Shown: positions 3,963-49,549, numbered from the stretch's first letter. The stretch: 54,359 nucleotides of DNA from Candidatus Iainarchaeum sp. (GCA_043809245.1 JAZDDZ010000010.1:1-54359), one strand, 5' to 3'. The notes: generated by a model from the sequence alone, not told the origin. A program made the numbers and translations.

Positions 3963-4010
3963 AATACCTATCCAGCATTATGGATATATCCCTTTTAGTG
4001 GATAGGTGTT
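3963..4010. promoter_or_regulatory. Inverted-repeat operator upstream of the HTH/nucleotidyltransferase pair
   Basis: ACCTATCCA (3966-3974) / TGGATAGGT (3999-4007). Confidence 0.5.
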
Positions 4011-4015
4011 GTTTT

Positions 4016-4612
4016 TTGATTGACTTGGCGTCAGACAAGAAAATGAGGATTGTCGAGTTTTTGCTGGAGAAAAAGGAGTTCACGCAGTACGGGGTGAAAA
4101 AAGAGTTAAGGCTCGGGATGAGCATAGTTAACCAGACGTTCAGTTTTTTGCTTGATAAGGGGGTTATTGGGAAACCTGGAAAAAAATACGCGTTAAAAGA
4201 CCCTGTTGGCTTGATTGAATTAACTGCTTTTTTTCGCAGCATGGAAAAACTTAAAATCATGGAGATAAGCACGTCACTTGAAAAAAAAGACGTCTTGAAA
4301 ATCCTGCCGGATAAATCGATTCTTTGCCTGGAAATTGCCTTGGAAAAATACTCAAATTATTATGTTTCAAACAGGATTTGCTTTTACGCTGACGGTGAAA
4401 CCGCGGATAAATTCAAAAAAAAGCTTTCATTCAAACCAGGAAACAAGACCGTTGTAATCGCGTACAGGGAAAAGCCAAAAGCCCTCCAAATCGAAACATT
4501 TGGAAAACACAAATTTACTGCCAGGATTCGCACAATAATCGACTTGTTTTCAGACAAAAAAGGCAATGCCGCCGAAGCGCTGGTAAGGCAGTTGTGGGGA
4601 AAAAACGCATGA
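4016..4612 (+). CDS. Winged-helix protein, AbiEi-like (type IV TA antitoxin-like)
   Basis: N-terminal wHTH pattern (FTQYGVKKELRLGMSIVNQTFSFLLDKGVI); C-terminal RTIIDL; TTG start after GGTG RBS (ORF track starts it at 3980); coupled to the next gene. Confidence 0.55.
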   Translation: MIDLASDKKMRIVEFLLEKKEFTQYGVKKELRLGMSIVNQTFSFLLDKGVIGKPGKKYALKDPVGLIELTAFFRSMEKLKIMEISTSLEKKDVLKILPDKSILCLEIALEKYSNYYVSNRICFYADGETADKFKKKLSFKPGNKTVVIAYREKPKALQIETFGKHKFTARIRTIIDLFSDKKGNAAEALVRQLWGKNA

Positions 4613-38842: not shown

Positions 38843-38978
38843 GGGCCCGTGGTCTAGCGGCTATGGCCCTTTCTTTGAGGAAGCCTTTTTTGAGCCTGAA
38901 CTCAGACATGAGTACAAAGAGGGGCTCTTGAAAGTTGGTAAGGATAAATCTGAGAAGTTTTCAAATCCCCGGCGCACC
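38843..38978 (+). pseudogene. Decayed tRNA-like gene with a BHB-type intron; identity uncertain
   Basis: GGGCCCGTGGTCTAGCGGCTATGG gives acceptor 5' strand and D-arm; BHB TTTC-TTT / GAAA-GTT defines a 60-nt hairpin intron (38876-38935); TTCAAATCCC T-loop remnant; T-stem and acceptor 3' strand are broken. Confidence 0.6.
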
Positions 38979-39029
38979 GGAAATTCACCCCCGAAAGCGA
39001 ATATAAACAAAAAATAAATTATTTTAGGT

Positions 39030-39944
39030 ATGACCGAGTTTCTGGATGTGCCCTCAAGAGAGCAGAGAAGAATCTTGCTACTTTTCAAGAACAAATTAAA
39101 TTTAACATGGAATGAATTAGCAAAAATTATGGGAATAAATAAAAGCACATTATTTTTTTATTGCAGCGATGCAATCAGGGCCCCGATTTACAGGATTCTC
39201 AAACTATGTGAGCTTACAGGAGTCCCTGTGAAAGAATTGGGGAAGTTAAAAACAACTTTTATAAAATACGGAAAACGGCTACAAATCAGGAAACCGCCTA
39301 TGGATTCTGTCCAGCTGGCAGAACTATGCGGAGTTCTTCTGGGTGACGGGTGTATTTATTCAAAAAACAACGGATTATGCATCAGCGGGCACCAAATACA
39401 CGACTACAAATATTTTACCGAAAAGATTTCGCCAATGTTTGAAAACCTCTTTATGCAAAAACCATCAATTTACAAATCAAGAAATAGTAAGTCACTAAGG
39501 CTAGTTTTATACAGTAAAGAAGTGGCAGAATTCCTAAGTAGTTCGATTTTTGTGGTTGGAAACAAGAAAAAAGCAAAAGCCCGAATACCTGAATATTATT
39601 TTAATAATCCGGAATTACTTATTGCCTGTTTGAGAGGGCTTTCAGACACTGACGGGAGCATATGCCCACACCCCCATACAAAAGTCATGTATAGCATCAC
39701 GATAAAGATTCCTGATCTTTTGAATTCAACAATTGAAGCCTACAGAAAAATCGGCTTCCCGGTAAAAGTTTCTGGCTATAATATCTATTTTTACGGGGAA
39801 AAATTGCTGAGTAGATTTTTTAGCGAAATAGGAAGCAGCAATCCAAAGCACGTAATAAAATGGCAGCAATTCAAAAAGACCGGAAAAATGCCCCGCTCCA
39901 CGGAATCAGAACAAATGCTAAAAAATCAGCTTTACCGGAATTAG
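39030..39944 (+). CDS. Free-standing double-motif LAGLIDADG endonuclease-family protein with an N-terminal HTH
   Basis: LTWNELAKIMGI HTH; LAELCGVLLGDG and ACLRGLSDTDG motifs; IGSSNPKH C-terminal motif. Confidence 0.88.
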   Translation: MTEFLDVPSREQRRILLLFKNKLNLTWNELAKIMGINKSTLFFYCSDAIRAPIYRILKLCELTGVPVKELGKLKTTFIKYGKRLQIRKPPMDSVQLAELCGVLLGDGCIYSKNNGLCISGHQIHDYKYFTEKISPMFENLFMQKPSIYKSRNSKSLRLVLYSKEVAEFLSSSIFVVGNKKKAKARIPEYYFNNPELLIACLRGLSDTDGSICPHPHTKVMYSITIKIPDLLNSTIEAYRKIGFPVKVSGYNIYFYGEKLLSRFFSEIGSSNPKHVIKWQQFKKTGKMPRSTESEQMLKNQLYRN

Positions 39945-39994
39945 TGCCAGTAGCAAAATTATAAAGGGTTTGCGTAGAAGATTTATTTGATACT

Positions 39995-40121
39995 GGGCCC
40001 GTGGTCTAATGGTGTGACGCTAAATCATTTTGTCTTTATTCGGACTATGGTGCGGAACCCTTACAAATGGAATATCCATTAGGTTCGGTGGAGGTCGGCG
40101 GTTCGATTCCGCCCGGGCCCA
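39995..40121 (+). tRNA. tRNA-Val(TAC) with two introns: 29/30 (40023-40057) and canonical 37/38 (40066-40085)
   Basis: After removing both introns, a 72-nt cloverleaf with stem CTACC/GGTGG and loop CTTACAC; intron 2 has a strict BHB (CTTA/TAGG; bulges CAA and TTC); intron 1 has a relaxed BHB. Confidence 0.88.
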
Positions 40122-40185: not shown

Positions 40186-41961
40186 ATGAAGAGATTTTTT
40201 GCGGTTTTAATTGCATTGGCTTTCCTCTGCGCTTTCGCGTTCTCCGCTGAACTGGAGGTTCTGCCAAGCCAAATACAGGAAATGGACTTGAATGTAACGC
40301 TTGGCGCGCACGGGGGCTTTTCCGGAACAGTGAGCACTGCTGACAGAATGGAGGTGAAAATGCTCACGCTTCAGGGAAGCGCAACCCAGAAAATAGAGGG
40401 CTTAAGCGAAAGGCTTTTGATTGGAGGCAAAGAGTTTTTGCCGAAAACCCATGAAACCACGGGAGAAAAAAAGTACGCGGTGTTTGAAATTGAAAGGCTT
40501 TATGATTTTGTTTCTTCGCCAGAATTTGAAGTCAAAATAAACGCCAGGGTAAAGACAAGCGCGCTGATGGAGTTAGGCGAAGACTTTAATTTGAGTGAAA
40601 CTGATTTTTCCGCGCAAAAGGAATTCCTCAAACAATCGGATTACATTGAGGTAAACGACCAGGCGCTGAGAAGCAAGGCACAGCTGGAATTCCAAAGCGA
40701 TTCGGGATTGGAGACAATAAGGGGGATAACGGAATGGGTGAACGACAACATAGAGTATGATTTTGCGGATTACTATGCAGGAGTGTGGAGCGCAAAGCAG
40801 ACCTATGAGAGCGGGAAAGGCGTATGCGATGAATTCAGCAATTTGGCTGCCGCATTCCTGCGCATCAAAGGAATTCCCGCAAAATACGTGTCAGGGGTAT
40901 CATTTGATGGCAAAAGGTTCGGCAACCACGGATGGTTAGAGGTTTTCCAGCCTGGAAAAGGATGGATTGGGGTTGACCCAACTTACGGCGAAGCCGGTTA
41001 TCTTGACGCAACGCATGTTGCTGTTGCAAAAACAGTTGACGTTAACAGCATTGAAAACCTTGTAATCCTCACTTATTCAGTTGGGGGGTTAAAAGTGGAG
41101 TCTTCGCTGGATGAGCCGGAGATTGAAATAATTTCATCAAAGCAGTTTGATGGATTGCTTGGAGTGGAGCTTGAAAAGCCTGACCGGCTTAACTTGGGGG
41201 AAGCCTTTGAATTCAAGGCAACCGTGAAAAATTTGCAAAGCAAAAGCATTATAGTGCCGTTAGAGCTGGTGCTGCACAACGACTTTTCTTATAGCGAAAG
41301 GGCAAGGCTTGAATTGTTCAAGCCATTGGAGGAAAAGGAAATTGTCTGGAATGCGGTTGCGCCAAAAGAAGGAAAGCCGAATACTTTCGCTGAATACGAG
41401 GCAATTTTTTTGGCTCCCGACAAAAAGTTAACGGAAAAATTAAGCGTTTACTCCGAGGAAGGCGCTGGGGAGCCCGTTTCATTGGTCAAGGTGCTGGACG
41501 TCAGCCCATTTGTTGACGCGAACACTGTTAAGGTATCCATTACGCTTGCAAACAGCGGGGAAAAAGACGGAAAAGCAGAAATAGCGATAACAATGGAGGG
41601 AAAGACAAGCAATTACTCGGAGGAAGTGAAGGCTTTAACGCAGAAAAAAATAACCTATTCGTTCAAAGGCGTTTCAATGGGAACAATTTTGCTGAAAGTC
41701 GTTGCGGATGAAACCAAGAGCTTTGAAATAACTGTTCCCGAAAAAAAAGAGGACGTGAAAGTCAAAGAGCTTGCGGGAGAGGAAAGCAGCGTTGAGCCGT
41801 TGAATAACGGAAAAGAAGAGGACCTTTTCACTGCCTTTTTCAACGACGAATTCCTCATTGCGGTAAGCCTTGTTTTGGCTGCAGTTGTAATTCTCGCCTT
41901 CTTTTTAAAGGCATTTTTTGACAGGGAAAAAATGAAGCCGATTTTTCCGGAAATGCCTTGA
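40186..41961 (+). CDS. Secreted, membrane-anchored transglutaminase-like (Cys protease) protein
   Basis: Signal peptide; GVCDEF, HGWLEV and WIGVDPT catalytic triad; C-terminal TM helix. Confidence 0.88.
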   Translation: MKRFFAVLIALAFLCAFAFSAELEVLPSQIQEMDLNVTLGAHGGFSGTVSTADRMEVKMLTLQGSATQKIEGLSERLLIGGKEFLPKTHETTGEKKYAVFEIERLYDFVSSPEFEVKINARVKTSALMELGEDFNLSETDFSAQKEFLKQSDYIEVNDQALRSKAQLEFQSDSGLETIRGITEWVNDNIEYDFADYYAGVWSAKQTYESGKGVCDEFSNLAAAFLRIKGIPAKYVSGVSFDGKRFGNHGWLEVFQPGKGWIGVDPTYGEAGYLDATHVAVAKTVDVNSIENLVILTYSVGGLKVESSLDEPEIEIISSKQFDGLLGVELEKPDRLNLGEAFEFKATVKNLQSKSIIVPLELVLHNDFSYSERARLELFKPLEEKEIVWNAVAPKEGKPNTFAEYEAIFLAPDKKLTEKLSVYSEEGAGEPVSLVKVLDVSPFVDANTVKVSITLANSGEKDGKAEIAITMEGKTSNYSEEVKALTQKKITYSFKGVSMGTILLKVVADETKSFEITVPEKKEDVKVKELAGEESSVEPLNNGKEEDLFTAFFNDEFLIAVSLVLAAVVILAFFLKAFFDREKMKPIFPEMP

Positions 41962-42032: not shown

Positions 42033-42202
42033 GCGACCGTAGTCTAGTGGTTAGTTTTCACACGGGCAACGGTTAAAGCTTGGTGAACTAATGAATAAGA
42101 AAAATATTTGTGTTGTTCAACAAGCTTTGTGTCTGGTGGAAAACCCATAAAGGATATGGCCTTGCCAAGGCTATGACCCGGGTTCGACCCCCGGCGGTCG
42201 CA
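42033..42202 (+). tRNA. tRNA-Gly(GCC) with a 98-nt D-loop intron (42053-42150)
   Basis: Acceptor GCGACCG/CGGTCGC; arm TGGCC-TTGCCAA-GGCTA; BHB GTGG/CCAT with bulges TTA and AAA; 72-nt mature form. Confidence 0.92.
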
Positions 42203-42245
42203 TTCAATAATTTTGCTTTGCATTTGAAGCAGAGAGTTGAAATAA

Positions 42246-42581
42246 ATGGAAAAAATAAAAAAACCAAGGGACATAAGGCTCAGTAATGCGGACTTTGAAC
42301 GAGTTGCTAAAGCAGTTATTAGCCTCCATAAAAGCCATACAGCCCGGGAGATTGCGGATTTTCTTGGAATGCAAGAAAACCCGGTTTTTATTGAAGAACC
42401 CCGGGTTCATGATGTAATCAGAGCCCTAATTGACATGAAAAAAATTAATGCGGCTGCTGTAACGAGGGCTAGCCCTGGGTTAAGGCATACGAGGCCAGAC
42501 CCTAAAACAAACCCGTTAGAAAAATATTTCAAGACACCTTCAATTCCAATGCGTAATCGCGGAAAGCATTGGCACAAATAA
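42246..42581 (+). CDS. Orphan protein, possible HTH, basic termini
   Basis: HTAREIADFLG segment; ends PMRNRGKHWHK. Confidence 0.55.
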   Translation: MEKIKKPRDIRLSNADFERVAKAVISLHKSHTAREIADFLGMQENPVFIEEPRVHDVIRALIDMKKINAAAVTRASPGLRHTRPDPKTNPLEKYFKTPSIPMRNRGKHWHK

Positions 42582-42703
42582 GCTCAACTGCAGCTAATGG
42601 TGGCTGCATTTCGCTTTTTATTTTTTTGAAAAAAATACAGGCAACCAAGGGAATGCAGCATAAACCTATTGTATTTTATTTATCGGCTGCATAAATCTAA
42701 TTT

Positions 42704-43639
42704 ATGCCTAAATGGGGTCCTGAAATCAAAAGCAGGGTGAGAAGGCCGCCAAGAGGCCAGTTGCCTTTAAAAGAAAGGCGCGCTATGGCAGTAAACAGAA
42801 TCGCCAGAGAAGCAGGGGTTCCACCGCACATAGTTGAGAGGGCATTAAACGCGGAAGGCTATGGACATGCTTCGCCTCAGAGAATAGCCGTGAAAATACT
42901 GGGAATTAAAAGAACCCTAGAAAAAGAAGAATACCTGAAAAACTTAGAGGCCAGAGTCAATCGGGACATTGAAAGGCACGGATTGAAAAGGACATTAAAA
43001 GATATTGCCAGAAGTGTAGGAATGCACGCATCCGAGCAAGATGTTTCCCATTGCCTGAAAAAACAAGGATTACAGGAAAAGCAAGCGCAGGAAGCGGAAA
43101 AAATAAGGAGAAGAAAAGTGGAGAGAAAAAACAGGGAAAGAATGGATGGAACAGGCAAAATCAAAGGCAAGGCAGGCGAATTGCCCCTGAAAACGATTAA
43201 AATTGATAGATTGGATAAAGTGCTGGCATTAAATGATTCAGGCTGGCTTGAAAAAAAAGCCGATGCATTCTGGGCGCATATCGCAAAAATAGGCAGAGAC
43301 AAGATTGGCATTGGCACCACGGCTTATTTCATGTGCAGGGATGGCTATGGCTTGGAAGAAATTTCCACGGCAACCGGTTATGAAAAGAAAACTTTGCAGG
43401 GGCTGTTCAAAGCAATGGGTTTGAATGAAAGGAAAACCAGCATTCATGCACTGCAACCAGGGGCTTGGAATAGAATTGCAAGGGCAAACAATTTCCTTGA
43501 TACCAATCACAAATCAACTAAGTATACAATTAAAGATATTTCAGATCATTCCGGCATGACACTGGAAGATGCGCTTGTTGTAAGGCACATAAGCGGAGCG
43601 GTCAGCCGTTTTTTTCTGTCATTAGGTAAGTCGCCTTAG
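42704..43639 (+). CDS. Orphan protein with several HTH-like segments and an Arg/Pro-rich N-terminus
   Basis: IAREAGVP, LKDIARSVG, LEEISTATG, IKDISDHSG; N-terminus MPKWGPEIKSRVRRPPRG. Confidence 0.6.
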   Translation: MPKWGPEIKSRVRRPPRGQLPLKERRAMAVNRIAREAGVPPHIVERALNAEGYGHASPQRIAVKILGIKRTLEKEEYLKNLEARVNRDIERHGLKRTLKDIARSVGMHASEQDVSHCLKKQGLQEKQAQEAEKIRRRKVERKNRERMDGTGKIKGKAGELPLKTIKIDRLDKVLALNDSGWLEKKADAFWAHIAKIGRDKIGIGTTAYFMCRDGYGLEEISTATGYEKKTLQGLFKAMGLNERKTSIHALQPGAWNRIARANNFLDTNHKSTKYTIKDISDHSGMTLEDALVVRHISGAVSRFFLSLGKSP

Positions 43640-43702
43640 CCGCCAAGGCAACCTGAAAACATTTAACTACTTTTTCAGCCAAAATTGGTTAGAGGTGAGG
43701 GC

Positions 43703-44209
43703 ATGGCTAAGGTTTTGTTTGTGATTGCGCCGAAGGATTTTCGTGATGAAGAATTGTTTCACACAAAAGAAGAGCTGGAAAAAGCAGGGCACACTTCAAC
43801 GATTGCCTCTTTAAGGAAAGGCGCTTGTTCCGGGAGAATGGGTGGAAGCGCTGAGGCAACACTTGCGGTTGACGAAGCAAAGGCATCTGATTTTGACGCG
43901 GTTGTGTTCGTTGGAGGCGGCGGGGCAGCGGTTTACTTTGAAAACCACGCGGCATTCAATTTGGCTAAAAACTTCAAAAACCAGGAAAAAATTGTTTCAG
44001 CGATTTGCATTGCGCCAAGCATTCTTGCAAACGCAGGGGTATTGAAGGGAAAAAAGGCAACGTGTTTTCCCTCGGAGAAAGACAATTTGCGCGTCAAAGG
44101 AGCCAATTACACTGGAACGCCAGTTGAAGTTGACGGAAGAATCATCACCGCTAACGGGCCTGAAGCCGCAAGGGCTTTCGGGAAAAAAATCGCTGAAGCG
44201 CTGAAATGA
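43703..44209 (+). CDS. DJ-1/PfpI family protein
   Basis: DFRDEE, FDAVVFVGG.GA, SAICIAP, IITANGP. Confidence 0.92.
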   Translation: MAKVLFVIAPKDFRDEELFHTKEELEKAGHTSTIASLRKGACSGRMGGSAEATLAVDEAKASDFDAVVFVGGGGAAVYFENHAAFNLAKNFKNQEKIVSAICIAPSILANAGVLKGKKATCFPSEKDNLRVKGANYTGTPVEVDGRIITANGPEAARAFGKKIAEALK

Positions 44210-44578
44210 TTACCGCAGCATGCGTCTATTGGTTATCGGTTTAGTGAGGTTAAACTTTTTGCCATAGCTTCTGACAAGGTTTCCTTCAGGGCTGATTTTG
44301 AATCCTTCTTGCCTAATTCTTGCTTTATACGCAGGTTCATTGCCTTCAGCGCGAAGCGCTAAAAGCTCTCTTGCAAGGGTTTCCCTGCCCCTCACAATTG
44401 ATTCCCTTGCATCCGCTGTCAGCGGTACAACTGTTATTACCCCCCTTGCGCCACGACCAATAAAAACATTGTTCTCAAGGCAGAAAAGCTTCAGTGCGGC
44501 AATGCTTTGAGGCGAAGGATTTCGAAAAACGTGCCTGCCAAGAGCCAAGGCGTTTTCCATTATTTTTCTGCGGTCCAT
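44210..44578 (-). CDS. Orphan basic protein
   Basis: 122-aa ORF ending KPITNRRMLR. Confidence 0.55.
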   Translation of the reverse strand: MDRRKIMENALALGRHVFRNPSPQSIAALKLFCLENNVFIGRGARGVITVVPLTADARESIVRGRETLARELLALRAEGNEPAYKARIRQEGFKISPEGNLVRSYGKKFNLTKPITNRRMLR

Positions 44579-44634
44579 GAAAATTGGATTGAATAAAACA
44601 ATTAAATCCCTTTCGCGGGAAAGAATTGTTTAAT

Positions 44635-44705
44635 GCAGCCGTGATGTAGTGGTAGCATTGAAGCTTCCCAAGCTTTTCGCCCGGGTTCGAGTCCCGGCGG
44701 CTGCA
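44635..44705 (+). tRNA. tRNA-Gly(CCC), intronless
   Basis: GCAGCCG/CGGCTGC acceptor; GAAGC-TTCCCAA-GCTTT arm; CCGGG-TTCGAGT-CCCGG T-arm. Confidence 0.93.
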
Positions 44706-44780
44706 ATCAACTGCGCAAGCGTATGCGAGCGCAGCGAGCATGTCCCCTGAGGGGGACTCGTACCCGCCGGACGTGACGGC

Positions 44781-44801
44781 GTTTGAGTCCCGGCGGTCGC
44801 A
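44781..44801 (+). repeat. Partial duplicate of a tRNA-Gly 3' end (att-like)
   Basis: GTTTGAGTCCCGGCGGTCGCA versus GTTCGAGTCCCGGCGGCTGCA (CCC/TCC copies) and GTTCGACCCCCGGCGGTCGCA (GCC copy). Confidence 0.7.
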
Positions 44802-44827
44802 TAATCAGACGCGGGCCGCAAGCCAGA

Positions 44828-44905
44828 GTTATCACTAATAATTTAACAATTGCCGGTGGTGATAACCAGCCGTGGCTTGTTTTTAATGATTTTGGTGGTG
44901 ATAAC
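44828..44905. promoter_or_regulatory. Three GTGATAAC boxes upstream of the fic gene
   Basis: GTTATCAC at 44828-44835 (inverted); GGTGGTGATAAC at 44855-44866 and 44894-44905. Confidence 0.5.
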
Positions 44906-44910
44906 TAATT

Positions 44911-45921
44911 ATGCGGAATCTGATTAAGAGAAAGCTGAAAGGACAAACATATTTTTATCTCGAAAAGAACATTAAAATAGGGCCTAGCAAGTGGAAAAAG
45001 GTCTCAGTATATTTAGGCAAAAAAAGGCCTGCAAAAGGCGAGCTTTCCAAGAACCAGAAAGTTTTAGGCAGAAAATTAAGGGCGGCAGTGGACAGATTCT
45101 ATGACGAAAGGATAAGCCAATTCACATTTTCTTTCCTTTCAAAAGAGCAGATAATAGAAATTGAGAAAGCCCGAACCAATTTTTTGGGACGTTTTGAAAA
45201 GCTTAGCAAGCAATTAAAAGAGAAATTCAATAAGCAGCAGGCAATTGATTTCGTTTACACTACGCTTAGGACAGAAGGCATTGATGTAAGTTCAGAGGAT
45301 GTTGAAACCGCGTTTAAAATACTGAGAAAAAAGCGCGGAGAGTTAGTATTAAATGAAAAAGTGATCATTTCAAGCTTAATGCTTACCGGGCTTGACTTTC
45401 TTTCAAAAATTGAAGTTAGCAAAAAAGACCTATTGAAACTGCACGGAATAGTAATGTCTTATTTTGAAGGCAAAAGCCCGGGGCAATTAAGGGACGACCA
45501 ACGGGTAATAATGCGATTTAATCCCAAAACTTTCCAGCAGGAAGAAATCAAATACGGGCCGCCGCCGCCAGAACTTGTTGAAAGGGAGTTTGACAAGTTT
45601 TTTGAATGGTTTGAAAGGAACCGAAAAACCCACCCAGTAGAACTTGCTGCGCTAACCCACTTGAAGCTTTACACGGTTCACCCATTCAAGGATGGCAACA
45701 AAAGAATGTGCCGCCTAATATTCAACAAAATCCTCCAAGACAACAACTATCCAACACTTAATATTTCAAAAAACACTACAGAATACTTTAAAAGTTTAGT
45801 GAGGTCAGTGGAAGAAAAAAACTACAAATACTTTGTTGAATTCTGCTACAAAAACTTCCTAGAGCAAGTAAAGAACAAAAGATTCAAAAGCGGGAAAAAA
45901 GGCGTGCCAAAATTAAATTAA
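44911..45921 (+). CDS. Fic-domain protein
   Basis: HPFKDGNKRMCR Fic motif; PGQLR; HPVELAA. Confidence 0.9.
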   Translation: MRNLIKRKLKGQTYFYLEKNIKIGPSKWKKVSVYLGKKRPAKGELSKNQKVLGRKLRAAVDRFYDERISQFTFSFLSKEQIIEIEKARTNFLGRFEKLSKQLKEKFNKQQAIDFVYTTLRTEGIDVSSEDVETAFKILRKKRGELVLNEKVIISSLMLTGLDFLSKIEVSKKDLLKLHGIVMSYFEGKSPGQLRDDQRVIMRFNPKTFQQEEIKYGPPPPELVEREFDKFFEWFERNRKTHPVELAALTHLKLYTVHPFKDGNKRMCRLIFNKILQDNNYPTLNISKNTTEYFKSLVRSVEEKNYKYFVEFCYKNFLEQVKNKRFKSGKKGVPKLN

Positions 45922-46530
45922 CTGAGTTAACCTGCTTTTCACCTTCGCAAACGTGTGCGCAATTGAATCGCTTGCGTTAATCAGCTGAATGTTTTCCCTT
46001 GGAAAAAACTTTTTCATTTCTCTGAACTTCTTTCTGACTTTTTCCAGGAACTTTTTTTGCTCAAATTTCTGGAGCCTGGATTTGCGCGAAGAAGTGATGC
46101 GCTTCAAGGCAACGGAGGCAGGCAAATCGAAAATCAGAACCAAATCAGGAGAGCGCGTGCCTTTATGCATTGAAATGATTTTTTTTGAGGGAATGCCTTG
46201 AACTGATTGGTATGCCAAAGTGGAGTATTTGAAGCGGTCGCATAAGACTATTTTTCCGGAACGCAGCGCGGGAATGATTTTTTTGCGCAAATGCTCGCAG
46301 CGGTCTTTAACGTAAAACTCCAAGCATTTCAAGGCGTTTGATTTGGGGTCGGAATCTTTTCTTTGAAGCGCTTTAGCTTTTCTGCCAAAAACCCCATTCG
46401 TGGGCTCTTTTGTGAGCAGAATTTGTTTTGCGGAAAAGCCTTGTTCAATTAGGAATTTTTTGGCGAGTTTCAGTTGTGTGGATTTGCCGCAGCCGTCAAG
46501 TCCGTCAAAGACAAGGAAAAAGCCGTTCAT
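45913..46530 (-). CDS. tmk: Thymidylate kinase
   Basis: FDGLDGCGKSTQ, TKEP, CDRFKYSTLAYQ, PDL. Confidence 0.93.
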   Translation of the reverse strand: MNGFFLVFDGLDGCGKSTQLKLAKKFLIEQGFSAKQILLTKEPTNGVFGRKAKALQRKDSDPKSNALKCLEFYVKDRCEHLRKKIIPALRSGKIVLCDRFKYSTLAYQSVQGIPSKKIISMHKGTRSPDLVLIFDLPASVALKRITSSRKSRLQKFEQKKFLEKVRKKFREMKKFFPRENIQLINASDSIAHTFAKVKSRLTQLI

Positions 46531-46919
46531 TTTGGGTGCCCCTTGAAAAGCCTTGAAAGCCAAGGCCTTTTTCTCTTTTGCACGAGTTTTTGCTGCACTA
46601 CAGGTTTAACGTGTTCAGGTTTAATTGTTTTGGATAATCCAAAGTTTGCTTCCTGTATTCTAATTAATTCCCTCTCATCAGGAATATTGGCTCCAAATGC
46701 GAATAAAACTGAAAGAAAAGACTCCATTGGCAGTTTTTCAAAAGCGCCGGTATCCTGGTTTATGTGAATGCCTGTTCTGGCGCAAAGAGAAGAATACTCT
46801 TGTGCTTTAGCAGGATTTATCTGCTCTCCAGAATCAACGAGGGCTTTATTAGCTCTATAAAGATTCAGCATTCTAGCAAGCATTTGCCCCGGCGTTAATT
46901 CTTCCAGATATTCTTCCAT
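46527..46919 (-). CDS. Orphan protein with a basic C-terminus
   Basis: Ends VQKRKRPWLSRLFKGHPK; stop overlaps the tmk start. Confidence 0.6.
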   Translation of the reverse strand: MEEYLEELTPGQMLARMLNLYRANKALVDSGEQINPAKAQEYSSLCARTGIHINQDTGAFEKLPMESFLSVLFAFGANIPDERELIRIQEANFGLSKTIKPEHVKPVVQQKLVQKRKRPWLSRLFKGHPK

Positions 46920-46987
46920 ATATTAATCCTTTGCCCTGCCAAACAGCTTTAAACATTTCTGGTGAAAGAATTATTCAGGGGTTTTGA

Positions 46988-47269
46988 ATGAAAATGAGGT
47001 TTTGCCCGCAGTGCGCTTCGCTTGAAGTTTCACCCAATGGCTTAGGGGGATACAGGTGCAGGAAATGCCATTATTCCGGCGAGATAAGGGAAGGCAGCGT
47101 TGATGAATTGAATGCTTTAAAGAAAAGGGTTAACGACAGGAATAAGGCAAAAATGACTGTTGTAGAGGAGCCAAAGCCAAAGGACATAAGGCCCACTGAT
47201 TTGAGGGCAAGGAATTTGATGGCAAAAAAAATCGCGCCAAAAAAAACAGATGACTGGGAAATCATTTAA
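46988..47269 (+). CDS. Zinc-ribbon protein
   Basis: FCPQCAS...YRCRKCHYSG. Confidence 0.7.
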   Translation: MKMRFCPQCASLEVSPNGLGGYRCRKCHYSGEIREGSVDELNALKKRVNDRNKAKMTVVEEPKPKDIRPTDLRARNLMAKKIAPKKTDDWEII

Positions 47270-47286
47270 GAAATCCCAGCCGAAAA

Positions 47287-47508
47287 CTATTTTTTCATGC
47301 AGCAACAGCATATGTTCAGCAATACCAGGATTCCCAGTATCAGCGTGAGCACAGGCCACACAATGCCAAGCGCTGGAAGAGTGTAAACGTTAAAGTAAGC
47401 GAGAAAGCCTAAAATCGCGAGGATTATCAGCAATCCGCCCTTGCACCAGCACTTGTGGTGTCCGCCTTCACAGCACTTGTCGCCGCCTTTCATCATTTCA
47501 TCAGCCAT
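47287..47508 (-). CDS. Small Cys/His-rich two-TM membrane protein
   Basis: GGAGGTGA RBS; KCCEGGHHKCWC and CCC termini; WP motif. Confidence 0.75.
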   Translation of the reverse strand: MADEMMKGGDKCCEGGHHKCWCKGGLLIILAILGFLAYFNVYTLPALGIVWPVLTLILGILVLLNICCCCMKK

Positions 47509-47581
47509 TGAAAATCACCTCCTTCAAGAGAAAGTGTTTAAAGGTATTTAATCCTTTTCATTTAACTGAGAAGGTTTTTGA

Positions 47582-47989
47582 TTGTCCCCAAGAATAATGC
47601 CACAAGGGAAACAGGAATTATGGAAAGGGTTAAAGCTCGGCGAGTGGAACGCCAAATGTTTTGCAGGGGAAAAAACTGTTGAAAGCGCGGCTATAAAAAA
47701 AACAGCGGCTTTTGCGCGAAAAAACATGACTGCCTATAGAAAAGCTGTTGAAGCCGTGGAAAAATATGAAAGCAGGGCAGGAAAAAAAGGGTTTAGCCTG
47801 CCGGAAGAAGAGCTTAACAGAAGAAAAGTGCTAAGGCATACGCTTGCATTAAGCATTATTGGCACTGGCAGATTGTTGAGAAAAGGCCATGAATACACGC
47901 AACAGCTTCCTAAAGGCGAAATCCTTATAACAAAGAACAAAGCCGGAGAAATAAACTTTAAGCTAATTGCGCAGCCGAAAGACCTCTGA
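47582..47989 (+). CDS. Orphan basic protein
   Basis: 135-aa ORF; start uncertain. Confidence 0.55.
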   Translation: MSPRIMPQGKQELWKGLKLGEWNAKCFAGEKTVESAAIKKTAAFARKNMTAYRKAVEAVEKYESRAGKKGFSLPEEELNRRKVLRHTLALSIIGTGRLLRKGHEYTQQLPKGEILITKNKAGEINFKLIAQPKDL

Positions 47990-48038
47990 CGGTTTAACCT
48001 ATTTAATCCTTTTGCTGGAAGAAATAATTCTGCGGGCT

Positions 48039-48155
48039 GCAGCCGTCGTCTAGTGGTTAGTTTTCACACGGGCGGCTTTAAGCACCTGGTGGAAAACCCA
48101 TAAAGGATCAGAGCCTTCCAAGCTCTTGACCCGGGTTCGAGTCCCGGCGGCTGCA
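48039..48155 (+). tRNA. tRNA-Gly(TCC) with a 45-nt D-loop intron (48059-48103)
   Basis: AGAGC-CTTCCAA-GCTCT arm; same BHB and intron ends as Gly(GCC); 72-nt mature form. Confidence 0.92.
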
Positions 48156-48179
48156 AAACGCTTTTTTAAAGGCGTTAGC

Positions 48180-48584
48180 ATGAGCGCAATAAAAGACCTA
48201 AAACTATTGCTGAAGTCAATGAACCCGGAACTTTCTGGCGGAGAATTTGTTTTCTGCTCAGTTTCCGATAATGCTTTGGCTGAATTGAATGAAAAGCCAT
48301 TGCTTGTGTTCAGGGAAAAAGAATGGGCAACGGTTGTTTTGGAGAGAGAAGCGGCCGAAAGGCATTCGCTTGCTTTTTCAGGCAGCTTGGCGCTTATAAC
48401 CTTGAACGTGCACTCAGACCTTTCAGCTGTAGGGTTTCTGGCGGCTGTCACTGCAAGGCTTGCGGAGCACGAAATAAGCGTTAACGTTGTTTCAGCTTTC
48501 CACCACGACCACTTGTTTGTTCCCGCGGAAAAAGCCGAAGAGGCGATGCGATTGCTCAAGGAATTGCAGGAATCAAAGGCTTAA
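48180..48584 (+). CDS. ACT-domain protein (DUF2241-like)
   Basis: DLKLLLKSMNPEL, FREKE..T, ITLNVHSDLSAVGF, SAFHHDHLFVP. Confidence 0.85.
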   Translation: MSAIKDLKLLLKSMNPELSGGEFVFCSVSDNALAELNEKPLLVFREKEWATVVLEREAAERHSLAFSGSLALITLNVHSDLSAVGFLAAVTARLAEHEISVNVVSAFHHDHLFVPAEKAEEAMRLLKELQESKA

Positions 48585-48621
48585 AATTGCTTTGCTGGCA
48601 GGGGAAATATTATTAAACTCT

Positions 48622-48641
48622 TGTAAACATATTTGTTTACA
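48622..48641. promoter_or_regulatory. Palindromic operator of the RHH-RelE toxin-antitoxin operon
   Basis: TGTAAACA-N4-TGTTTACA between the TATA box and the RBS. Confidence 0.65.
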
Positions 48642-48650
48642 GGTGGTTTT

Positions 48651-48878
48651 ATGGCTGGCCAGATTCAGGTGCAGTTGAGGGTGCCTAAGGATACTGTAAA
48701 GAACATTGATTCAATGGTTAGCGAGGGAAGGTTCAAGAGCAGAAGCGACGCGATTAAAACAATGATTTCAAGTTTTGAGGAAAGGGAAAAAACAAGGGAA
48801 TTCTATAAAATGCTTATCGAGAGAAGCAAGAAAACTTCTGAAAAGCCTGAAAAACTAATTCCTTTAAGTGAGATTTAG
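48651..48878 (+). CDS. Ribbon-helix-helix antitoxin
   Basis: IQVQLRVP...ID.MV.EG.FKSRSDAI. Confidence 0.8.
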   Translation: MAGQIQVQLRVPKDTVKNIDSMVSEGRFKSRSDAIKTMISSFEEREKTREFYKMLIERSKKTSEKPEKLIPLSEI

Positions 48879-49144
48879 TGGCTTTCAAAGTTCTTTTTGG
48901 AGAGAAAGCTGCGCGTGAATTAAGAAAACTGGATAATTTCACAAAGGAAAGAATAAAAAAAGAAATAAATGAATTGGAGAAAAACCCTGAAAAAGGAAAG
49001 CATTTGCAGTACTGCGATTATTGGAGCCTAAGAATAGGCGATTACAGGGCAATTTATGAAATAAAAAAACAAGAACAAAAAATAATAGTCATTTTTGTAG
49101 GGCACAGAAAGCACGTTTATGAGGATTTCACAAAATTGTTTTAG
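48878..49144 (+). CDS. RelE/ParE family toxin
   Basis: WSLRIGDYRAIY; VGHRKHVY. Confidence 0.9.
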   Translation: MAFKVLFGEKAARELRKLDNFTKERIKKEINELEKNPEKGKHLQYCDYWSLRIGDYRAIYEIKKQEQKIIVIFVGHRKHVYEDFTKLF

Positions 49145-49156
49145 TGGGCGAAAAAA

Positions 49157-49549
49157 ATGAAGCCAAGGGAAAAGTCTTTCGTTGAACGCATTGCATTGGA
49201 GCGCATTTACCGCCTTTTCGAGTTGGCTGGAGCGGAGTTCAAGAAGCACCCTGAACGCAGCAAGCGTTACGTGGAGTTGGCGCGCGAGATTGGGAAACGG
49301 AACCGCGTGAAAGTGCCTGGGGAATTGAAGGAAAGCTATTGCAGGAAATGCAACGCGTTTTTGGTTAAGGGAAAGAACGCGAAAGCGGTTAAGGAAAAGC
49401 ATTTTCTCGTGCTTGAATGCAAAGAGTGCGGGGGCAAGAGAAAATATCCATTGAAAGACCATTATGACGAGTTCTTACACGAAATACAGAAAGAAAGGAT
49501 GACCGCCTTGTGGGAAAATAAAAAAGACAAGAAATGGGGGCGGATTTAA
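49157..49549 (+). CDS. rnp4: Ribonuclease P protein component 4 (Rpp21) with a C-terminal extension
   Basis: IALERIYRLF, RYVELAREI, YCRKC, CKECG..RKYP. Confidence 0.9.
   Translation: MKPREKSFVERIALERIYRLFELAGAEFKKHPERSKRYVELAREIGKRNRVKVPGELKESYCRKCNAFLVKGKNAKAVKEKHFLVLECKECGGKRKYPLKDHYDEFLHEIQKERMTALWENKKDKKWGRI

Follow-up and report, generated by a model that had tools for sequence, protein, structure and literature searches.

A D-loop intron probably copied between two old glycine tRNA genes of Candidatus Iainarchaeum sp.

Since intron transposition was proposed for Thermoproteales, it has been an open question by what route protein-spliced tRNA introns reach new genes. A 54,359-nucleotide (nt) stretch of DNA from Candidatus Iainarchaeum sp. 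(GCA_043809245.1, JAZDDZ010000010.1:1-54359) poses this question as a compact natural experiment: two of its three tRNA-Gly genes, those with the anticodons GCC and UCC, are interrupted at the same D-loop site by introns with identical ends. Was the intron inherited by both genes from a common ancestor, or did it move? Here we propose that the insertions are introns of the bulge-helix-bulge (BHB) type, one of which was copied between the two Gly paralogs after the split of this lineage from the other sampled families, with gene conversion as the likeliest route. We place the probability of this reading as a whole at about 0.75. Throughout, "the window" is the whole 54,359-nt stretch, and coordinates are counted in it unless a contig is named. 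The source genome (G000) comprises 55 contigs with 1,480,863 bases, and its assembly is 91.8% complete. It was compared with 196 species-level genomes of its order, which are small archaeal genomes of 0.3-1.5 Mb and among which G000 is the sole member of its family, f1. G numbers refer to genomes, L numbers to fetched loci or contigs, and f numbers to families of the order.

The three tRNA-Gly genes are all located on the + strand and span 6.1 kb of the window, with the following parts.

42033-42202, + strand: tRNA-Gly(GCC), read from the sequence, split after GTCTAGTGGTT and before AGGAT
42033..42052, + strand: exon 1 of Gly(GCC), comprising the acceptor 5' strand, the D-stem 5' strand and the D-loop through U20a
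42053..42150, + strand: 98-nt intron of Gly(GCC) that folds as a long irregular hairpin, assigned from the shared ends, the fold and the BHB parse
42151..42202, + strand: exon 2 of Gly(GCC), from A21 to the discriminator A73, with CCA not encoded
44635..44705, + strand: tRNA-Gly(CCC), intron-free, 71 nt, called by ARAGORN and by Rfam (tRNA, 61.2 bits)
48039-48155, + strand: tRNA-Gly(UCC), read from the sequence, split at the same site as Gly(GCC)
48039..48058, + strand: exon 1 of Gly(UCC), between Tmk and Rpr2 as in relatives
48059..48103, + strand: intron of Gly(UCC), a 45-nt hairpin, assigned from the shared ends, the fold and the BHB parse
48104..48155, + strand: exon 2 of Gly(UCC), with a partial, sub-threshold Rfam tRNA match at 48095-48147

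Both introns interrupt the D-loop between nucleotides 20a and 21. The first 15 nt of the two introns are identical (42053-42067 and 48059-48073), as are the last 18 nt (42133-42150 and 48086-48103). A sequence-only reading of this DNA had claimed the common site and the identical ends, and both our end searches and the parse of the genes bear this out. Each shared end occurs exactly twice in the window, with no third occurrence even at 2 mismatches; the expectation from shuffled sequence is 0.13 matches for the 5' end and 0.00 for the 3' end, and 0 of 100 shuffles reach two. Across the whole G000 genome, the two tRNA-Gly introns contain the only exact copies of the ends, in agreement with blastn-short. 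The other genome matches, obtained when up to 3 or 4 mismatches were allowed, all have at least 2 mismatches, and none is in a tRNA context. The introns differ at the top of the hairpin, which is 12 nt in UCC versus 65 nt in the longer hairpin of GCC. Searches of the genome and of the fetched loci for a further copy of these extra 65 nt gave only chance 12- to 16-mers, and thus nothing points to the insertion of a repeat element. Inspection of the long GCC intron, by eye only, revealed no C/D-box motifs.

Among the three genes, Gly(CCC) alone receives full-score ARAGORN and Rfam tRNA calls, and the 3' exon of Gly(GCC) gives a partial, sub-threshold Rfam tRNA match at 42131-42194. Once the introns are removed in silico, ARAGORN calls normal cloverleaf tRNA-Gly(gcc) and tRNA-Gly(tcc). 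Because standard tRNA finders miss both split genes, such genomes seem to be without two of their three glycine tRNAs. No other gene with a GCC or UCC anticodon was found in G000, in which Gly(CCC) is the sole further Gly gene found, so that both split genes would have to be expressed and spliced to read GGU, GGC and GGA. The D-arm of Gly(CCC), ATGTAGTGGTAGCAT, is unlike that of Gly(UCC), and the acceptor stem and T-arm of these two genes are identical. That Gly(CCC) is intron-free and has a different D-arm had been read from the sequence before, and the parse agrees.

The gene order TGase-Gly(GCC)-[Gly(CCC)]-Tmk-Gly(UCC)-Rpr2, with Tmk on the opposite strand, recurs in many families of the order, and one genome, G027, holds all three Gly genes in the order of the window. 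The protein-coding anchors in the window are as follows.

40186..41961, + strand: transglutaminase-like gene (TGase), upstream anchor of Gly(GCC) (Pfam Transglut_core, 2.2e-22)
45913..46563, - strand: thymidylate kinase (Tmk), anchor between the Gly genes (Pfam Thymidylate_kin, 9.8e-38)
49157..49549, + strand: RNase P subunit Rpr2/Rpp21, downstream anchor of Gly(UCC) (Pfam Rpr2, 2.6e-14)

The transglutaminase-like gene adjoins the GCC gene in G027, G023, G003, G039, G013, G008 and family f21. In their exons, the GCC and UCC genes of G000 are identical at 58 of 72 positions, whereas the GCC gene matches the GCC genes of G027 and G089 at 66/72, and the UCC gene matches its counterparts at 71/72 (L250) and 69/72 (G027). 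The acceptor stem and T-arm of UCC match those of CCC, not GCC. Judged by sequence and position, the GCC and UCC genes are old positional orthologs of the genes of relatives and anciently separate paralogs. Distinct old paralogs in conserved slots that carry the same intron argue that one intron was copied between the genes. The earlier claim that the introns are copies of one intron, with a descent separate from that of the exons, is supported by the contrast between 33 of 33 identical end positions and this exon identity.

Both insertions are, according to sequence and predicted fold, ordinary archaeal protein-spliced BHB tRNA introns at the noncanonical position 20a/21. In the predicted motif, the D-stem GUCU/GGAU forms the outer helix, the exon segment GUGG (G15-G19, including the G18-G19 region) pairs with CCAU, located 2 nt from the intron 3' end, in a central 4-bp helix, and two 3-nt bulges, UU^A and AA^A, carry the predicted splice sites. 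The inner helix begins with GUUUUC/GAAAAC and extends through nearly all of the shared 15 and 18 nt. The minimum-free-energy (MFE) fold of the UCC precursor (-50.1 kcal/mol, z -3.66) has the canonical register with the UUA and AAA bulges and the inner helix, and the MFE fold of the GCC precursor (-67.2 kcal/mol, z -5.53) contains the GUGG/CCAU helix and the AAA bulge. Across 11 Gly introns at the 20a/21 site, the D-stem is paired 4/4 in all and the bulges are 3 nt long; the central helix is paired 4/4 in 10 and 3/4 in 1, and the first six inner pairs are formed 6/6 in 9 and 5/6 in 2. The inner-helix sequences are of seven kinds (GUUUUC, GCUACA, AUGAUU, GCCGCG, GCGGCC, GCUUCC and CGAUUG), which differ and yet are complementary, and thus lend covariation support to the BHB motif. 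Since inner helices vary at the same site, no more than the first A and the final six nt of the intron are fixed by the exon. Introns of other lineages share only approximately A...CCA(U/C)AA, and the 33/33 identical ends of the G000 copies therefore point to common origin and not to constraint. The hairpin tops of many of the 11 introns center on a UUAA palindrome (CCUUAAGG, AGUUAACU, GCUUUAAGC, CUUAAG), which might reflect common descent, or else a tetraloop shared at the apex or a site for binding.

For processing, the exons would be released by cuts of the splicing endonuclease in both bulges and then joined by RtcB, which is present in G000 (C54:30094-31398). At least 10 tRNA genes of G000 carry introns. 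In tRNA-Val(GAC) (C4:11266-11379), too, the D-loop contains an insertion at the corresponding position; its MFE fold has a GCGG/CCGU helix, and the sequence of this insertion is unrelated to the Gly intron; ARAGORN mislabels the gene as Val(tac) with an anticodon-loop intron. A group I or group II self-splicing intron was also considered and rejected: an Rfam scan of the window at the gathering threshold finds one tRNA only, and the introns of 45 and 98 nt are simple hairpins.

None of the 35 Gly genes observed in loci fetched from 20 relatives has a D-loop intron, and 10 of the 35 have anticodon-loop introns. Three f21 genomes, G105 (42 nt), G092 (33 nt) and G109 (40 nt), have an intron at the same site in their UCC-slot gene, and this gene is without a D-loop intron in ten other genomes of the family, including G107, which belongs to the same genus as G105; the f21 totals among genes seen are 3/13 for UCC and 0/14 for GCC. 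A pattern consisting of TAGTGGTT, a gap of 18-130 nt, AGGAY and a Gly-type anticodon loop, run on the 196 genomes, matched 14 of them. When the matching strings were read, split Gly genes were present only in G000 (twice), G092, G105 and G109, and the remaining matches were read, without re-alignment, as tandem tRNA pairs or non-tRNA DNA. A pattern for the 3' junction, applied to the same genomes, matched 5 genomes other than G000 versus 6 control matches, with a true Gly gene only in G105; it missed G092 and G109, both of which were recovered by BLAST. In a scan of JGI metagenome contigs with a pattern that runs from the 3' junction through the anticodon loop to the T-arm, 6 of 6 contigs matched carry Gly genes split at the same site, with the anticodon UCC in L247, L249, L250 and L252 and GCC in L248 and L251. 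Searches of this type undercount because only D-arms like those of the window are findable. A looser pattern scan of genome contigs gave no alignment to tRNA-Gly among the 119 matches listed, and metagenome contigs scanned with the Tmk protein gave 185 pattern matches, of which 0 were confirmed. Of sequencing runs, one of groundwater DNA (7% of words) and none of RNA was listed as matching; compared with the stretch, the groundwater run yielded short low-depth contigs, none spanning either intron; two are identical to non-tRNA parts, and the others match tRNA exons and have unlike sequence beyond them. The intron site 20a/21 is thus recurrent in the order and not unique to G000.

Two of the metagenome contigs bear directly on the history of the G000 intron. 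The closest outside relative is L250, a 1.7-kb contig with flanks 82-87% identical to the window, in which the UCC exons differ from those of G000 at one position. Its UCC intron of 46 nt departs from that of G000 at one position of the 15-nt 5' end and matches it throughout the 18-nt 3' end. The next seven nt of this intron (AACGGTT) match the GCC intron of G000, not the UCC intron, so that it agrees with GCC at 21 of 22 positions. On L248, the GCC gene carries an intron and the neighboring UCC gene does not; the intron starts with AGUUUUC and ends with GAAAGCCCAUAG. The proteins of L248 are approximately 50-57% identical to those of G000, no closer than those of other families. A single-protein tree (DnaG-like protein, 13 rows) is mostly unresolved; in it L248 groups with G017 of f18, and f1 is not placeable.

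The gene in the UCC slot of G109 (L224, G109:C161, 4146-4257) deserves a separate remark. It has a Gly-type body and the D-loop intron, and its anticodon loop CTTCAAA corresponds to the anticodon UCA, which would read UGA. Recoding of UGA was considered and finds no support: read with table 11, a 10-kb locus has a coding density in the normal range, and 4 of its 12 long open reading frames terminate at TGA. RtcB is absent from the G109 assembly. A sequence error or a suppressor could explain the UCA anticodon, or it could be the beginning of something odd.

How else could two Gly genes have come to hold the same intron? The intron might date from the original duplication of the Gly isoacceptors and have been inherited vertically in both genes. 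In favor of this, the site is intron-bearing in several lineages of the order, which makes it either old or recurrent. This explanation is nevertheless contradicted, and very improbable, given the absence of the intron from most relatives (0/35 Gly genes of 20 genomes, 0/14 GCC genes of f21), the inner helices of other lineages, which are quite different, and ends identical at 33/33 in exons identical at 58/72. An intron in both genes across the clade, the pattern that the sequence-only reading had set against itself, was looked for and is not seen: apart from the 0/35, only 3 other genomes of the 196 have an intron at this site, in one gene each. A more recent duplication of an intron-bearing tRNA-Gly gene, followed by a change of anticodon in one copy, could have left the identical D-arm and intron ends as its remains. 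Against it, each gene is nearer to its own orthologs (66-71/72) than to the other gene (58/72), the two stand in separate conserved slots with Tmk between them, and the acceptor stem and T-arm of UCC are common to CCC, not GCC. These exon identities, slots and shared stems exclude such an event, to which we assign only a few chances in a hundred.

Convergence, imposed by the splice motif on an identical D-arm, would account for the final 6 nt (CCAUAA) and the first A, which the exon prescribes and which are found again in unrelated copies. It would not account for the other 26 shared nt, which the exon does not dictate, and it is contradicted by the seven different inner helices that serve the same site and by the chance expectation for the ends of 0.13 and 0.00 matches per window; we consider it very improbable. 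Separate gains in both genes from an outside donor, that is, another lineage, a virus or another mobile element, would fit the patchy occurrence seen when a single-gene tree is used as the frame (f1, part of f21 and an f18-like contig) and the GUUUUC-type intron in the GCC gene of the distant L248, whose neighboring UCC gene has none. However, no third copy of the intron exists in the G000 genome, neither Gly gene is associated with an element, and two gains are less economical than one gain with local copying. Separate gains from outside are, in our view, quite unlikely.

Several observations weigh against copying of one intron between the Gly paralogs. As a fresh event it is at odds with the loops, which differ strongly, with a length difference of 53 nt and several substitutions. 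The stems of the G000 and L250 UCC introns differ at 1 of 33 positions, against an identity of 82-87% in the flanks; the less conserved flanks indicate that the stems are under selection, and their identity between the paralogs is therefore no guide to when the copying took place. Only short homology flanks the intron, with 11 identical nt on one side and 5 on the other before it becomes patchy, which leaves little for classical recombination. The GCC intron of the unrelated-looking L248 has the same first inner-helix strand (GUUUUC), which lends some probability to spread from lineage to lineage or to an older origin. With respect to splicing, the GCC precursor has an MFE fold that leaves the first inner pair open, and an unpaired A14 opposite the 3' bulge produces a 1x3 internal loop instead of a textbook bulge; because this universal A14 faces the 3' bulge, the motif is near-canonical, not textbook. 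Finally, the splicing endonuclease EndA was not found in the 91.8%-complete G000 with Pfam PF01974 or with tblastn using EndA of relatives. A single EndA scores above the Pfam cut-off in 37 of 40 relatives, mostly as an open frame of approximately 170-200 amino acids, and as 8% of the genome is unassembled, the gene is presumably in that part.

When was the intron copied? The movement had been described as recent, and this stands only in so far as it is younger than the family split. It is not fresh, because the UCC gene of L250 already has nearly the same, orthologous intron and the loops have diverged in all three copies. The time of intron gain is only bounded, as the set contains no second f1 genome. 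The earlier suggestion that the movement depended on the target sequence is consistent with the finding that 11 of 11 intron-bearing Gly genes have GTCT..GG / GGA(T/C) D-arms. It is not established, because most of these genes were found by patterns that demand this D-arm, and because the same D-arm is often intron-free in relatives.

Introns in the anticodon loop provide a parallel. In G034, such introns are present in Gly(GCC) (178 nt; L160, G034:C163, 1130-1379) and in Gly(UCC) (94 nt; 3992-4156), with the first 27 nt in common; on this sequence evidence, G034 appears to be another instance, independent of the first, in which both Gly genes flanking Tmk carry one intron. At loci of f21, f28 and f32 (e.g., L225, L227, L212, L213, L158 and L169), the anticodon-loop introns of GCC, CCC and UCC genes look alike in design by eye, with a hairpin GCCUUUUCUU...AAGAAAAGGC followed by GGGAAAAGA. 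This likeness suggests either wider exchange among Gly isoacceptors or strong constraint.

The sequence-only reading had offered gene conversion or reverse splicing as the route. Gene conversion at the DNA level between two Gly genes 6 kb apart would copy the intron, and probably was the route, with reverse splicing as the alternative. It is favored, indirectly, by the identical 16-nt D-arm that the GCC and UCC genes share, by the second case in G034, and by the lack of a reverse transcriptase in the assembly, none having been found in the 91.8%-complete G000 genome. The location of the Gly genes as neighbors in a conserved cluster also makes local gene conversion a natural route. The direction can be argued either way: D-loop introns are commoner in UCC genes, which suggests UCC as donor, and the GUUUUC-type intron of the L248 GCC gene, together with the 8-nt GGUU D-loops typical of GCC genes, suggests GCC.

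LAGLIDADG genes beside tRNA genes raise a related possibility. The features concerned in the window are the following.

38843 onward: orphan tRNA 5' fragment, tRNA-like for approximately 25 nt and ending just after the D-arm (by reading)
39030-39944: helix-turn-helix (HTH)-LAGLIDADG gene (Pfam HTH_3, 3e-6; LAGLIDADG_3, 1.3e-5)
39995-40121: tRNA-Val(UAC), complete, with at least 2 insertions

The HTH-LAGLIDADG gene is located 2 kb upstream of Gly(GCC), between the orphan fragment, whose first 14 nt equal the start of the downstream gene, and tRNA-Val(UAC); ARAGORN misreads 38843-40121 as a tRNA-Gln with a 1186-nt intron. G000 contains four more LAGLIDADG-like matches (C2:4638-5036, C47:64467-65036, C47:54599-55246 on the - strand, and C8:31257-31610). 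The gene at C47:54599-55246 is 14 nt upstream of a tRNA gene (C47:54475-54584), and the other three are 0.2-1.2 kb from tRNA predictions. In relatives, LAGLIDADG homologs are found directly upstream of Gly(UCC) in L249 and L252, with the D-loop intron, and in G099, without it. The locus does not fit endonuclease-driven homing, as the introns contain no open reading frame and the nearest LAGLIDADG gene is beside tRNA-Val, not Gly; neither Gly gene of the window adjoins an endonuclease gene. Alternatively, free-standing HTH-LAGLIDADG enzymes would cut the DNA of tRNA D-arms, an intron-bearing paralog would act as the repair template, and the D-loop intron would then protect the gene by splitting the D-arm target. 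That BHB D-loop introns spread between tRNA genes via repair of such LAGLIDADG-made double-strand breaks is a speculative and unlikely proposal. If true, break repair would be the missing mechanism for archaeal tRNA intron transposition and a reason for intron retention.

The surroundings of the three Gly genes had been described as orphan genes. This does not apply to several neighbors, in which Pfam recognizes DJ-1/PfpI, Fic, thymidylate kinase, an RPB9-like zinc ribbon, ACT, ParE and Rpr2. Compared with relatives, the Gly-Tmk-Gly-Rpr2 cluster is stretched by insertions at 42246-44578, 44911-45921, 46527-47989 and 48126-49144. The inserted genes are unknowns of 111, 311, 122, 130 and 135 amino acids together with DJ-1/PfpI, Fic, ACT and ParE. 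The 135-amino-acid open reading frame (47582-47989) is just upstream of Gly(UCC) and is absent from the related contig L250. Elsewhere in the assembly, contigs C31 and C32 contain the same pair of tRNA-Ser and tRNA-Leu genes, which looks like a duplicated assembly piece.

How does this locus relate to known systems? Full-text literature searches on tRNA introns in DPANN/Woesearchaeota, a thin basis, yielded no description of an intron shared between tRNA genes. A free-standing endonuclease can aid the homing of an intron, which is known as collaborative homing. Similar to that system, free-standing LAGLIDADG genes are found beside tRNA genes in G000 and its relatives, and a D-loop intron would disrupt a DNA site spanning the D-arm. 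In contrast, the G000 intron is a predicted protein-spliced BHB intron and not a group I intron, and no endonuclease gene adjoins the Gly genes of the window.

DPANN lineages are known for disrupted tRNA genes (PMC5829648). In Methanopyrus kandleri, the pre-tRNA-Glu(UUC) contains a D-loop intron at 20b/21 that is processed in vivo; its motif is a relaxed HBh', which is poorly cut by the organism's own enzyme in vitro (PMC5829648). Like the introns described here, it is a BHB-type D-loop intron at practically the same position, but the G000 introns have both bulges and both flanking helices as predicted, and isotype and lineage differ. Yeast tRNA genes, although dispersed, are homogenized with their introns by non-reciprocal recombination, or intergenic gene conversion (PMC4090602). 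In yeast this involves copies of the same isodecoder with long homology, whereas in G000 different isoacceptors with short identical stretches are involved.

The closest precedent is tRNA intron transposition in Thermoproteales, attributed in later accounts to Fujishima et al. 2010, in which near-identical BHB introns at noncanonical positions are present in phylogenetically distinct tRNA bodies, gain was inferred from intron-free relatives, and the mechanism is thought to act on DNA (PMC4090602, PMC4390854, bioRxiv 10.64898/2026.10.13.758758). This mechanism is stated to be unknown in the review PMC4090602, and section 2.5 of the 2026 preprint on Asgard archaea found no general route for intron arrival (bioRxiv 10.64898/2026.10.13.758758). 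By sequence, the G000 Gly pair has the hallmarks described for Thermoproteales, namely, near-identical introns, unrelated tRNA bodies and absence in relatives. It differs from the published Thermoproteales cases in that one isoacceptor pair of one amino acid is involved, in a small-genome archaeon of another lineage and without large-scale spread, and in that an orthologous intron in a sister organism and intron-free orthologs in many families are known. The finding is thus a further case of a known kind of intron transposition and a useful test system, which offers two neighboring paralogs with one intron, a third without it, intron-free orthologs that keep this gene order in many families, a sister organism with the orthologous intron, and nine more Gly introns at the same site in other lineages.

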